A stretch of 4,197 bases of DNA from a virus (lineage: Duplodnaviria > Heunggongvirae > Uroviricota > Caudoviricetes), in the IMG/VR virus record IMGVR_UViG_2737471848_000018; one strand, given 5' to 3'. Of this stretch, positions 2,242 to 3,191 are shown in pieces. The first letter of the stretch is position 1. Every line of letters starts with the position of its first letter. Below the pieces are notes generated by a model, which was not told where the DNA came from, did no database searches, and was given only the letters and a program-made list of their open reading frames with translations. Made by a program: the position numbers and the translations under genes.

Positions 2242-2531
2242 TGGTGGATTTACGTAAAGCGGCGCGGGGGCAGATGTGCACCGTCAGAATTCCTGGCTAC
2301 TGCAATCACAATCCCGAAACGTCCGTGCTGGCGCATTACAGGCTGGCGGGGACGTGTGGAACAGCGACAAAACCACACGATATGCAGGCGGCAATTGCCT
2401 GTAGCTCATGCCACGATTTAATCGACGGGCGGGTAAAAACCAGCGATTACACCAAAGAAGAATTGCGCCTGATGCATGCAGAAGGTGTTTTTCGCACACA
2501 AGAAATCTGGAGAAAGGAAGGTTATTTATGA
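2241..2531 (+). CDS. ybcO: DUF1364 / YbcO-like small cysteine-rich protein (putative nuclease family)
   Basis: 96-aa ORF MVDLRKAARGQMCTVRIPGYCNHNPETSVLAHYRLAGTCGTATKPHDMQAAIACSSCHDLIDG..., five Cys including a CxxC pair; length and N-terminal sequence match my recollection of DLP12 YbcO. GGAG at 2229-2232, 8 nt before the start. Its stop TGA 2529-2531 overlaps the Q start (ATGA). Confidence 0.8.
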   Translation: MVDLRKAARGQMCTVRIPGYCNHNPETSVLAHYRLAGTCGTATKPHDMQAAIACSSCHDLIDGRVKTSDYTKEELRLMHAEGVFRTQEIWRKEGYL

Positions 2532-3082
2532 TTTACCCAACAAATACAGGCAAAAGCGGGGAACGCCTTCGTCTCACCACGCTGGAAAGTGTCTGGATTC
2601 AGGGAAAACTGCGCATGTGGGGGCGCTGGTCGTATATTGGCGGCGGTAAGACGGGAAATATGTTCAACCAGTTGCTGACCTCTAAAAAGCTGACAAAAAC
2701 GGCAATTAACGAGGCGCTCCGGAGGATGAAAAAAGCAGGTTTGGACAAACCTGAACTTGAGGCTTTTTTGCGGGATATGATCAACGGCAAGCAAAAAAGC
2801 TGGCTGGTGCATTGTACTGATGCAGAGGCGTTATGCATTGATCGGGTGATTAGTGAAGTGCTGGCAGAACACCCAGGATTGATTTGTATCCTCCGGCAAC
2901 GATATGAAGGGAGGGGGATGACTAAGCGAAAAATGGCTGAATTGCTGAATGATTCACACCCTGAGTGGTGTTTTCGGACGTGCTGCAGTCGGGTAGATGT
3001 ATGGCTAAATCTTGCTGAATATATGCTCTATCTACCGATGCGTGATGCATTCTCTTCCGGGGATCTAAAAACCGTCTGTTGA
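2528..3082 (+). CDS. Late-gene antitermination protein Q-like
   Basis: 184-aa ORF from ATG 2528, with AGGAAGG at 2513-2519, 8 nt upstream; the track's 2408 start is an unsupported upstream extension. N-terminal LRMWGRWSY...NQLLTSKK recalls the ERWGAWA...GLITSK region of 933W-type Q proteins (from memory). Cys-rich C-terminal half. Strongest support is context: the stop overlaps the -35 of a pR'-like promoter that is followed by a short-transcript terminator. Confidence 0.75.
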   Translation: MIYPTNTGKSGERLRLTTLESVWIQGKLRMWGRWSYIGGGKTGNMFNQLLTSKKLTKTAINEALRRMKKAGLDKPELEAFLRDMINGKQKSWLVHCTDAEALCIDRVISEVLAEHPGLICILRQRYEGRGMTKRKMAELLNDSHPEWCFRTCCSRVDVWLNLAEYMLYLPMRDAFSSGDLKTVC

Positions 3083-3108
3083 CTCAATCTGTTATCCGGG
3101 GCTATATT
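3079..3108 (+). promoter_or_regulatory. pR'-like sigma-70 late promoter with presumed Q-utilisation (qut) region
   Basis: TTGACT (3079-3084) and TATATT (3103-3108) with an 18-bp spacer; the -35 overlaps the Q stop codon, as in lambda, where pR' also has a TTGACT -35. Predicted start near 3115. Confidence 0.5.
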
Positions 3109-3169
3109 CCTCACGCGCCAGCAAAATCTGGCGTCGGGATTGGAACCCCGGATAGAGACCGCGACAGAC

Positions 3170-3191
3170 ACACGCCGCGAGCGTGTTTTTT
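3170..3191 (+). terminator. tR'-like rho-independent terminator ending a short pR' leader transcript
   Basis: ACACGC (3170-3175) / GCGTGT (3181-3186) 6-bp stem around loop CGCGA, then a T-run (3187-3191). About 75 nt after the predicted pR' start, resembling the short lambda 6S/tR' arrangement that Q overrides. Confidence 0.65.

Follow-up and report, generated by a model that had tools for sequence, protein, structure and literature searches.

In the immI operon of phages P1 and P7, an antirepressor gene is controlled by the antisense RNA C4, which carries two pairing sequences, a′ and b′, and has its targets on one transcript, upstream (a1/b1) and at the ribosome-binding site (a2/b2); the specificity of this control is set by the a and b sequences. 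The operon, with the order c4 antisense RNA, icd and ant, was reportedly described by Citron and Schuster in 1990 (cited in PMC12197685). In the Salmonella prophage Gifsy-1, the isrK locus has the order isrK, orf45/STnc1160, anrP and isrJ (Hershko-Shalev et al. 2016, PMC4825925), and both the reading frame orf45 and STnc1160, a stable processed species, were reported there. The CI RNA of phage P4, with seqA and seqC, was named as a structural analogue in the same study (PMC4825925). It belongs to the same Rfam clan (CL00128) and is likewise an antisense RNA derived from a leader, with complementary sites upstream and downstream on one transcript, but it acts by premature termination of replication-gene transcription and involves no antirepressor. 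A different kind of short RNA is exemplified by lambda 6S RNA and StxS, the short pR′-tR′ transcripts (PMC7547250), which are constitutive, terminated and made right after the Q gene.

The window examined here, by which we mean the whole 4,197-nucleotide stretch of DNA that was analysed (IMG/VR record IMGVR_UViG_2737471848_000018; all features lie on the + strand), was compared with these systems. In our reading, to which we assign a probability of roughly 0.78, two separate regulatory units meet behind its Q-like gene: an IsrK-C4-antirepressor cassette, and a DUF1133, Q21-like antiterminator with its late switch at 3919–4029. The first-pass annotation had interpreted the Q-like gene and the 110 or so bases that follow as a compact Q/pR′/tR′ switch. 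The Q-like gene and a real promoter and terminator survive from that proposal, but 3079–3191 appears to belong to the cassette rather than to a Q-responsive pR′/tR′. The geometry was correctly placed: the reading frame at 2528–3082 ends in a TGA codon (3080–3082) that lies within the TTGACT hexamer at 3079–3084.

Judged by its sequence, 3079–3910 is a self-contained IsrK-C4-antirepressor cassette of the P1 immI/Gifsy-1 isrK type, inserted after the Q-like gene and made up, in order, of IsrK with the a1/b1 decoy sites, C4, a ribosome-binding site marked by a2/b2, and an antirepressor gene of the ORF6N type. Its left end is the −35 element of P(isrK), a sigma-70 promoter at 3079–3108 (TTGACT, an 18-nt spacer and TATATT) that is supported by a consensus scan (10/12 matches), homology and conservation, and whose −35 overlaps the Q stop codon; the homology to Gifsy-1 and VT2-Sakai begins exactly at 3079. 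Across 65 distinct copies, drawn from at least 10 genomic contexts, the −35 is invariant in TTGAC and the −10 hexamer in its positions 2, 3, 4 and 6 (A, T, A and T). The IsrK sRNA at 3115–3191 is identified by two Rfam models, its fold and its complementarity to C4. The isrK model (RF01394) is matched from position 1 to 77 of 77 with 77.5 bits against a gathering score of 50 (E = 4.7e-16), and the c4-a1b1 model gives 50.1 bits at 3102–3154. The minimum-free-energy fold contains hairpin 1 (3115–3134; stem 3115–3121/3128–3134, GCGCCAG/CUGGCGU); hairpin 2 presents the b1 loop ATTGGAAC at 3139–3146, a1 (GAGACC) occupies 3155–3160, and a Rho-independent terminator, with its stem at 3170–3186 and a T-run to 3191, closes the 77-nt unit. 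The promoter and terminator of the earlier proposal are both borne out. The hairpin that it had placed at 3116–3131 and regarded as a possible part of a qut or pause signal is also present in the fold, but it corresponds to hairpin 1 of IsrK, a conserved feature of the c4-a1b1 motif; its loop, CAAAAT (3122–3127), bears a loose resemblance to a −10 and is conserved among c4-a1b1 members, also among those in non-Q contexts. In Gifsy-1 the homologous promoter gave 280 versus 3 Miller units in a lacZ fusion (PMC4825925), and a homologous 77-nt RNA has been detected in Salmonella (PMC2330248). To judge from homology, the promoter and terminator at 3079–3191 are real and would yield the already known IsrK sRNA.

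Downstream of the terminator, a C4-type antisense RNA at 3217–3300 is recognized by Rfam (C4, RF01695; 71 bits against a gathering score of 45) and by its fold (minimum free energy −44.9 kcal/mol, z = −5.0), with a closing stem and two inner hairpins as in the family. Its a′ sequence, GGTTTC (3260–3265), lies in a hairpin loop and its b′ sequence, GTTCCAA (3272–3278), is single-stranded. The second target copy, found by sequence and complementarity in the antirepressor leader (3303–3345), consists of b2 (ATTGGAAC, 3303–3310) and a2 (GAAACC, 3331–3336), followed by the Shine-Dalgarno sequence GAGGG (3341–3345); a2 abuts or overlaps the Shine-Dalgarno sequence. Complementarity between these elements is maintained by covariation across cassettes: b1 and b′ are complementary in 61/61 and b′ and b2 in 60/61, with four specificity types, and the a′ loop forms at least six Watson-Crick pairs with its own a2 in 58/61, compared with 17% for non-self pairings. 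The sample contains 14 a′ loop variants. In the window itself, a′/a1 pairing requires one G-U pair. The antirepressor gene begins only 52 nt after C4, and between the two the window has no icd gene; found there instead is a putative 36-codon reading frame (3221–3331), read from the sequence, which lies over C4 and is the positional counterpart of Gifsy-1 orf45. The controlled gene (3353–3910), an AnrP/Ant homologue, was identified by Pfam (ORF6N, 72.8 bits), tblastn and PGAP. An in-frame TGA at 3767–3769 interrupts it; a single-frame tblastn alignment to residues 1–184 of Gifsy-1 AnrP crosses this stop codon with 55% identity, and PGAP labels the gene a pseudogene, which it probably is.

The locus most like the window is that of Gifsy-1, which has the same cassette parts, 77% identity over 3079–3702 and the same Rfam families in the same order, and in which the cassette likewise stands directly after a Q gene, with another short promoter-terminator unit and a tRNA downstream of it. 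The two differ in the Q gene itself, which in Gifsy-1 (AntQ, STM2617) is of the Q82 type (PF06323) and in the window is DUF1133, and in the second unit, which is isrJ in Gifsy-1 and a unit marked by TAnGCT in the window; an Rfam search of the window at E ≤ 1 returned no isrJ, and therefore the second unit is not the Gifsy-1 one. The pairing sequences differ as well, both at the a site (CGGUGAU/AUCACCG in Gifsy-1, GGUUUC/GAAACC in the window) and at the b site (ACGCCAA/UUGGCGU versus GUUCCAA/UUGGAAC). The small reading frame ends 21 nt before the antirepressor start in the window, whereas that of Gifsy-1 overlaps the start, and the nonsense codon in the antirepressor gene is a further point of difference. 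With P1 and P7 immI the window shares a C4 RNA with a′ and b′, two target copies and an antirepressor as the controlled gene. It departs from them in its lack of icd, in its ORF6N-type antirepressor, in its setting in a lambdoid rather than a P1-like plasmid prophage, and in the terminator between a1/b1 and C4, at which transcription would end to give the upstream target copy as an sRNA of its own, IsrK.

Homology to Gifsy-1 and to the nin region of VT2-Sakai covers exactly 3079–3702, with 77–84% identity across this interval and higher values within the promoter-IsrK part. We found 128 copies of the cassette (65 distinct), all of which share the invariant TTGAC while their upstream flanks differ; the genes that precede them encode DUF1133, Q82-type (PF06323) and Q21/933W-type (PF06530) proteins, NinE, an integrase or a DUF551/Lar protein. 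Stx phages carry the cassette as a unit within nin, 2.5 kb upstream of Q. Of the copies sampled, over half lie directly behind a Q gene, an arrangement that could hint at some functional link. A tentative extension of these observations is that the cassette is a mobile plug-in with a preference for one site, the junction of a Q gene with its late promoter, in three or more Q families. There its −35 would coincide with the Q stop codon or adjoin it, and the cognate late promoter would be displaced downstream by about 0.8 kb; the placement may be functional, for example by timing the antirepressor with transcription that continues through Q. As a corollary of the same tentative idea, the true pR′-derived, 6S-like leader RNAs would be Salmonella IsrJ in late operons of the Q82 type and the 3953–4029 RNA in those of the DUF1133 type. 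We also considered whether the similarity between 3065–3083 and 3905–3924 marks a target duplication, but it is too short and imperfect to assert this.

The gene in front of the cassette (2528–3082) encodes a 184-aa protein that was classified by Pfam, PDB profile comparison, Foldseek and genomic position. It matches the Pfam family DUF1133 (PF06576) with 350.9 bits against a cut-off of 23.1, over residues 1–175 of the 176-position model, and passes the Phage_antitermQ model (PF06530) marginally, with 26.9 bits against a cut-off of 26. The phage 21 Q protein and DUF1133 are separate Pfam families, and a literature search for DUF1133 gave no paper. As a single sequence the protein reached the PDB entries of Q21 at E = 0.028, and a profile of 10 sequences reached the Q21 structures 6JNX and 6P18 at E = 4e-7 (4.3e-7), in an alignment that is collinear over most of the chain (residues 6–46 and 57–152 of the 162 of Q21) at only about 20% identity. 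In Foldseek searches the nine top matches were all Q21 chains (E from 4e-3 to 4e-2, TM 0.43–0.58) and the first match after them had an E of about 5; the AlphaFold model used for these searches is of low confidence (pLDDT 60.5, pTM 0.51), with a shallow alignment (77–90% identity) behind it. Q21 is the closest match of the DUF1133 protein in sequence and, by this low-confidence model, apparently also in fold. The gene occupies the Q position of a Rac-like E. coli prophage, upstream of the holin, lysozyme and terminase genes. Taken together, these comparisons indicate distant homology to the antiterminator Q of phage 21, and the Q-likeness that had been suggested for this protein is upheld by a profile search of Q families.

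Most likely, the Q-like protein controls a late-gene switch at 3919–4029, some 840 bases further along. There, homology to the post-Q sequence of cassette-free loci and an nhmmer core model place the candidate cognate late promoter at 3919–3958, with a −35 of TTGCAT (3919–3924), a 17-nt spacer that carries a family-conserved motif (3927–3940), a −10 of TTCAAT (3942–3947) and a −10-like element, TACGCT (3953–3958), around the predicted start site. By consensus this promoter is weak, with TTGCAT as its −35 and a −10 that lacks the A at position 2, and our promoter scan of the window did not list it. In place of TTCAAT, the real −10 might be the TAnGCT element, which TGn precedes in many members of the family, so that the start site is uncertain. 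The predicted leader and terminator (3955–4029), delineated by fold and by a layout shared with other units, comprise a 5′ hairpin (3955–3962/3974–3981) and a predicted tR′ with a stem at 4004–4012/4019–4027 (core CCCGC/GCGGG) and a T-run at 4024–4029; the fold has z = −3.1, and the two-hairpin layout recurs in most of 35 distinct units, built from differing sequences. The transcript of this leader (3953–4029) is probably 6S/StxS-like, whereas IsrK, unlike 6S and StxS, is part of an independent cassette and has no tie to any single Q family.

The pairing of this unit with DUF1133 genes is best seen in cassette-free loci, which come from E. coli, Shigella, Citrobacter, Klebsiella, Enterobacter, Providencia (43–45% Q identity) and Edwardsiella (32%). 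In these a conserved series of elements starts on the Q stop codon or immediately after it: a −35, the spacer motif, a −10, TAnGCT, a hairpin and a terminator. The conserved TAnGCT unit accompanies every intact DUF1133 gene that has enough downstream sequence, apart from a few divergent or IS-disrupted loci. In 1.4 Mb the core model gave one match per DUF1133 locus and one match (L083) without a full DUF1133 gene; the model was built from sequences that it then finds, so this per-locus uniqueness is only partly independent evidence. The exceptions were L004, with a divergent unit, L021, whose match (E = 0.018) is lost at a stricter threshold, and L008 and L009, which an IS element interrupts; a search for the unit with a simple regular expression missed the same loci, as divergent variants (L004 and L021) or through IS insertion (L008 and L009). 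Without an insertion the core match begins 2–32 nt past the end of the Q match; with the cassette it begins 835–1425 nt past it, and in L018, where hok/sok is inserted, 606 nt. The model found no match at 3079–3140, in Gifsy-1 or in VT2-Sakai. Other Q families show a comparable displacement: behind Q82-type genes an isrJ-like unit stands at +13 in cassette-free loci and at about +832 where the cassette is present, and 933W-type Q genes have their own unit about 40 nt downstream without the cassette and, in most loci, about 0.8–1.1 kb downstream with it. The predicted unit at 3919–4029 matches the parts list of phage 21 Q and pR′21 (6P18, 6JNX; PMC6606751; bioRxiv 10.1101/651190), in that both have a promoter whose −35 and −10 flank a conserved motif, a −10-like element where the transcript begins, a terminator and then late genes. 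Some DUF1133-family members have the phage 21 half-site TGAGCA in their spacer, with TGAGCA or TGAGCC in the Enterobacter/Kluyvera-type units L026, L027, L030–L033, L035 and L036, whereas the window lacks TGAGCA and has TTGCAC...AAACTG as its spacer motif. Beyond the unit lie a tRNA-like region, holin, lysozyme and terminase. The tRNA-like sequence and a further terminator (4075–4185) were located by Rfam, PGAP and a terminator scan: Rfam scores 4075–4145 as tRNA with 37.3 bits over model positions 7–64 only, PGAP calls it tRNA-Met and ARAGORN reported no tRNA in the window, and the further terminator (4159–4176 plus a T-run) stands between the predicted tR′ and the late genes.

The cassette promoter might serve a dual purpose and be acted on by the upstream Q as well, for example through non-specific antitermination at high Q levels, which would create a positive feedback from Q through read-through to the antirepressor. 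We consider this unlikely. The position of so many copies directly after a Q gene is in keeping with such a role, as are two observations in Gifsy-1, where IsrK supplied in trans raised the long transcript about 8-fold and over-expressed AntQ disturbed termination globally (PMC4825925). On the other hand, the cassette promoter carries no Q-family-specific element, the cassette works as a unit in the nin region of Stx phages at a distance of 2.5 kb from Q, and the Gifsy-1 authors credit activation to RNA pairing, with point mutations of their own at b1/b′ positions (PMC4825925). Less probable still is the lambda-type assignment of the first-pass annotation, according to which 3079–3108 would be the pR′ of the DUF1133 Q, the 77-nt RNA a 6S-like leader and 3170–3191 the tR′, with Q loading there and reading through. 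The Q stop codon inside the −35, a strong consensus promoter with a short terminated transcript, the late genes further downstream and a review sentence that has IsrK made from an antitermination-regulated promoter (PMC7547250) all lend it some appeal. Q proteins, however, have family-specific recognition sites between −35 and −10 (PMC6606751), and here the same promoter and leader occur behind three Q families, NinE, an integrase and other genes; 3079–3191 does not match the DUF1133-associated core, the terminator is followed by C4 and an antirepressor gene instead of late genes, and cassette-free DUF1133 loci have a different unit after the stop codon, which the window has kept at 3919–4029. 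The counts of promoter-like sites (4 versus 5.1 expected) and terminator-like sites (8 versus 4.3) in the window are near shuffle expectation, and the signals at 3079–3191 do not rise above chance by pattern alone, yet they are clearly non-random because of homology, and the full-length Rfam match (E = 4.7e-16), the conservation in 65 distinct copies and the detected homologous RNA (PMC2330248) have already refuted chance matches in an intergenic region as their origin, leaving that reading a negligible probability.

We therefore retain the reading of two separate units, and for the E. coli copy we infer transcription starts, pausing, Q loading and regulatory outcomes as follows. The cassette promoter at 3079–3108 would produce mostly the 77-nt IsrK, ending at the 3170–3191 terminator, while read-through transcripts would bear the C4 RNA and the antirepressor message. 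The a′ and b′ sequences of C4 would pair with a2 and b2 near the antirepressor ribosome-binding site and keep the gene silent; the a1/b1 copy in IsrK would titrate C4 or remodel the long transcript, and the antirepressor would then be switched on. The DUF1133 Q, for its part, would load onto RNA polymerase at 3919–4029 and let transcription continue past the terminator into the tRNA-like region and on to the lysis and structural genes.

Our findings leave known principles unchanged, and the IsrK cassette type was itself already known. What they affect is the annotation of lambdoid late-control regions, where a strong promoter and terminator immediately after Q need not be pR′ and tR′: many E. 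coli, Shigella and Salmonella prophages have an IsrK-C4-antirepressor cassette in that spot, with the real late switch behind it. Sequence comparison further assigns DUF1133 to the Q21-like antiterminators, with a candidate promoter, pause element and terminator, and it suggests a role for the Salmonella sRNA IsrJ as leader RNA of the late operon in Gifsy-1. Finally, with 14 a′ loops and 4 b′ types in our sample, the repertoire of C4 specificities is large and combinatorial, and it probably sets which prophages cross-induce one another.

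The promoter-terminator pair directly behind the Q-like gene (2528–3082) forms part of an sRNA/antisense antirepressor cassette that was already known, and sequence comparison best places the lambda-type late switch at 3919–4029. The first-pass annotation had read the pair as a Q-specific pR′/tR′, which did not hold, and the elements it described are all present at the positions it gave: the TGA stop codon of the Q-like gene (3080–3082) lies inside TTGACT (3079–3084), TATATT follows 18 nt past this hexamer to complete the promoter at 3079–3108, the leader forms a hairpin (GCGCCAG/CUGGCGU, 3115–3134), and a GC-rich stem (3170–3186) is followed by a T-run up to 3191. 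As bare consensus matches, the sites at 3079–3191 showed no enrichment over shuffles; homology shows that they are real. Adjacent Rfam matches, all above the gathering score, were found to isrK (full-length, 77.5 bits, 3115–3191), the c4-a1b1 motif (3102–3154, 50.1 bits) and the C4 antisense RNA (3217–3300, 71 bits), which is followed by an ORF6N antirepressor-type gene (Pfam; 3353–3910). The element is a further example of the known IsrK-type cassette.

This layout is that of the isrK locus of Salmonella Gifsy-1, whose record gave the same Rfam matches in the same order, and more distantly resembles the immI operon of P1/P7. In Gifsy-1, the isrK promoter produces the short IsrK RNA, while terminator read-through yields a long untranslated transcript, isrK-orf45-anrP; IsrK acting in trans switches on translation of the antirepressor AnrP, which leads to induction of the prophage early operon, including the Q gene, and a stable processed RNA, STnc1160, lies between isrK and anrP (PMC4825925). 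The ORF at 3353–3910 aligned over its full extent with AnrP in a single frame (residues 1–184, 55% identity). Because its codon 139 is an in-frame TGA (3767–3769) and PGAP annotates it as a pseudogene, the cassette of the window is probably disabled at the protein level.

The C4 RNA of the window adopts the Rfam-family fold (z = −5.0), with a′ (GGUUUC, 3260–3265) in a hairpin loop and b′ (GUUCCAA, 3272–3278) single-stranded. Its predicted targets occur twice: IsrK carries b1 (AUUGGAAC, 3139–3146) in the loop of its hairpin 2 and a1 (GAGACC, 3155–3160), and the antirepressor leader carries b2 (3303–3310) and a2 (GAAACC, 3331–3336), the latter a short distance 5′ of the Shine-Dalgarno sequence (GAGGG, 3341–3345), which a2 overlaps in several cassette variants. 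Among 61 parsable distinct cassettes, b1 and b′ were complementary in all 61 and b′ and b2 in 60, with four b specificity types (AAC/GTT, CGT/ACG, TCT/AGA and CAT/ATG). The a′ loops comprised 14 variants, and a′ could form at least six contiguous Watson-Crick pairs with its own a2 in 58/61 cassettes, as against 17% of non-self combinations. This three-way covariation of the a and b sites strongly supports control of antirepressor translation by a C4-type antisense mechanism, in which the target copy on IsrK acts as a decoy. The mutations that defined the IsrK interaction in Gifsy-1, G28A and G31A in IsrK and C159U and C162U downstream (PMC4825925), fall in b1 and b′ as assigned here. C4 specificity is combinatorial in the cassette alignment (14 a′ loops, 4 b′ types). 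Some prophages carry two cassettes (L010, 790–976 and 4088–4268; L055, at 3961 and 7223), and a few hybrid cassettes have mismatched sites, e.g. b′ GTT versus b2 CGT in L104.

The cassette is independent of the Q gene. Homology (blastn) between the window and both Gifsy-1 and the Stx2 phage VT2-Sakai covered exactly 3079–3702, so that it starts where the −35 hexamer starts. In Gifsy-1 the preceding gene is of the Q82 type (PF06323) rather than DUF1133, the Pfam family of the window protein, and the VT2-Sakai cassette is part of the nin region, flanked by a NinE gene and roi, 2.5 kb upstream of a Q gene from another family. An IMG/VR scan with an isrK core pattern, combined with the other loci of the analysis, gave 128 cassette copies (65 distinct), in which TTGAC and, within the −10 hexamer, positions 2, 3, 4 and 6 were invariant; the flank upstream of TTGAC represented at least 10 unrelated contexts. 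The gene ending at or next to the −35 was DUF1133 in about 33 copies, a Q82-type Q in 23, a PF06530-type (933W-like) Q in 17 and NinE in about 36; in the remaining copies it encoded an integrase or a DUF551/Lar protein, or was unannotated. Since each Q protein recognizes, in the −35/−10 spacer of its own late promoter, a site particular to its family (PMC6606751), a promoter common to three Q families and to non-Q contexts is ruled out as the specific pR′ of each. Q genes of DUF1133, PF06323 and PF06530 all occur with the cassette immediately 3′ of them (L047–L166, the window and cassette alignment A2), and behind it each family keeps a promoter-terminator unit of its own. Recurrent insertion at the Q/pR′ junction is the pattern in these alignments. 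The cassette junctions of the window (3065–3083 and 3905–3924) resemble each other and the 3′ ends of cassette-free DUF1133 genes (CTAAAAACCGTCTGTTGAC, CTTTAAAAAAGTTCTTGCAT, CTCAAAAAACGGCTTGATT), a likeness that may go back to the recombination event by which the cassette was inserted.

Cassette-free DUF1133 loci, drawn from phage vB_EcoS-683R6, from Klebsiella, Providencia and Edwardsiella phages and from 38 loci of a species-representative genome collection, mostly contained one conserved unit overlapping or immediately 3′ of the Q stop codon. This predicted cognate unit consists of a TTGAnn −35, a spacer of 16–18 nt that carries a conserved motif (E. coli, TTTACGCATAAACTGC; Klebsiella and Enterobacter, GTTGCGCGGAAAGTGC or GTGAGCAAGAAAGTGC; Providencia, TTTTACCGATAAAGT), a −10 (TTCAAT, TTGAAT, TAAATT or TATAGT), a −10-like hexamer, TAnGCT, 4–7 nt past the −10, a hairpin whose 5′ arm begins inside TAnGCT, and a Rho-independent terminator 40–100 nt downstream. 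In the window it spans 3919–4029 (TTGCAT, 17 nt, TTCAAT, 5 nt, TACGCT), with the hairpin at 3955–3962/3974–3981 and the terminator stem at 4004–4012/4019–4027 followed by a T-run. The predicted hexamers are poor (position 2 of TTCAAT is not the usual A), and a consensus promoter scan of the window did not pick up this unit; the −10 might instead be TAnGCT, which TGn often precedes. The promoter-plus-start region was made into an nhmmer model, which, applied to 1.4 Mb (167 loci), gave a single match in each DUF1133 locus, on the Q strand in every case, and none at 3079–3140, in VT2-Sakai or in Gifsy-1. The match began 2–32 nt past the Q match end when nothing was inserted, 835–1425 nt past it with a cassette, where the sequence was long enough, and 606 nt past it in L018, where hok/sok is inserted; one match had no full DUF1133 gene (L083). 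Exceptions are explained or minor: an IS element within the antirepressor gene (L008, L009), divergent units (L004, L021) and three loci that are too short. The model was built on sequences chosen near Q stop codons and is not fully independent, and even so the absence of the unit elsewhere and its displacement by exactly the cassette length are informative.

That the neighboring protein is Q-like, as first proposed, was borne out. It matched DUF1133 at 350.9 bits and Phage_antitermQ (PF06530) marginally (26.9 bits, cut-off 26). The top PDB match to a single DUF1133 sequence was phage 21 Q (E = 0.028), and a 10-sequence profile matched it collinearly (E = 4.3e-7; Q21 residues 6–46 and 57–152 of 162). 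With a poor AlphaFold model from a shallow alignment (pLDDT 60.5) as query, the best nine Foldseek matches were Q21 chains without exception (E 4e-3 to 4e-2, TM 0.43–0.58), the next having E of ~5. Phage 21 Q binds a TGAGCA direct repeat between the −35 and −10 (PMC6606751); several DUF1133-associated promoters have TGAGCA or TGAGCC at the corresponding place, and the unit at 3919–4029 has TTGCAC...AAACTG instead. This likeness is suggestive only. The literature searched contained no mention of DUF1133.

Rac-like prophages of E. coli, in Shiga-toxigenic and other strains (e.g. SJ7 and OkiPb01684), match the window at 100% identity. Gene order in OkiPb01684 (recET, kilR, repressor region, replication genes, hokD, Doc-family toxin, DUF1367, DUF1364/YbcO, DUF1133, ORF6N pseudogene, tRNA-Met, DUF6645, holin, lysozyme, Rz, terminase) places ORF 2528–3082 in the lambdoid Q position. 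In the source-like genome L001 (19991–22400), a truncated large terminase gene precedes an integrase-bearing element, and its Rac-like prophage is therefore probably defective. Records labeled Candidatus Nanosynbacter MAG (L014), Vagococcus sp. (L025) and Actinobacillus phage vB_Apl-pPE4 (H11/H31) contain near-identical DUF1133 regions of the E. coli type, probably through contamination or mislabeling. The window begins with a hok/sok type I toxin-antitoxin locus (1–240; HOK_GEF 82.9 bits, Rfam sok match clipped by the window edge); in the Pantoea locus L018 the same module separates Q from the cognate unit. A Doc/Fic-family toxin gene (649–1134) is preceded by a 59-codon ORF (451–630) without a family match, which could encode its antitoxin. 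Behind the hok and doc modules lie two near-identical terminators (AACCCGCTTCGGCGGGTTTTTT; 309–330 and 1149–1172), whose weak Rfam matches to isrK, rsmX and istR are probably mere terminator resemblance. A very AT-rich spacer (1200–1320), upstream of a small unannotated ORF (1319–1570), contains two minus-strand promoter-like sites (1245–1216 and 1298–1269). The tRNA-like sequence at 4075–4145 was called tRNA-Met by PGAP and matched Rfam at 37.3 bits over model positions 7–64 only, and ARAGORN found no tRNA there; because its 3′ acceptor strand seems unpaired, it probably represents a decayed tRNA of the kind found between the Q and stx genes of Stx phages.

Other Q families offer parallels. 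An isrJ-like unit lies 13 nt past Q82-type Q genes without a cassette (L066, L089) and about 832 nt past those with one (20 loci, Gifsy-1 included); in other phages it overlaps genes with a Q-like annotation at their 3′ end. From these positions, IsrJ (Gifsy-1 record L046, 33406–33520, minus strand; promoter TTGCAA-17-TATATT) looks like the pR′-tR′ leader RNA of the Gifsy-1 late operon; antitermination is unmentioned in its 2008 discovery paper, and the link was not found elsewhere in the literature searched. Likewise, the 933W-type PF06530 genes have their own promoter-terminator unit about 40 nt past Q without a cassette and, in most loci with one, about 0.8–1.1 kb past Q (further in one). 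Some effect of Q on read-through of the IsrK terminator is conceivable, since IsrK has been called the product of an antitermination-regulated promoter (PMC7547250) and over-expression of Gifsy-1 AntQ had a global effect on termination (PMC4825925). The main argument for 3919–4029, rather than 3079–3191, as the most likely partner of the DUF1133 protein is that the unit behind the cassette varies with the Q family and the cassette does not. Modestly new are a predicted late-promoter unit specific to DUF1133 and the cassette's recurrent position separating Q from pR′.
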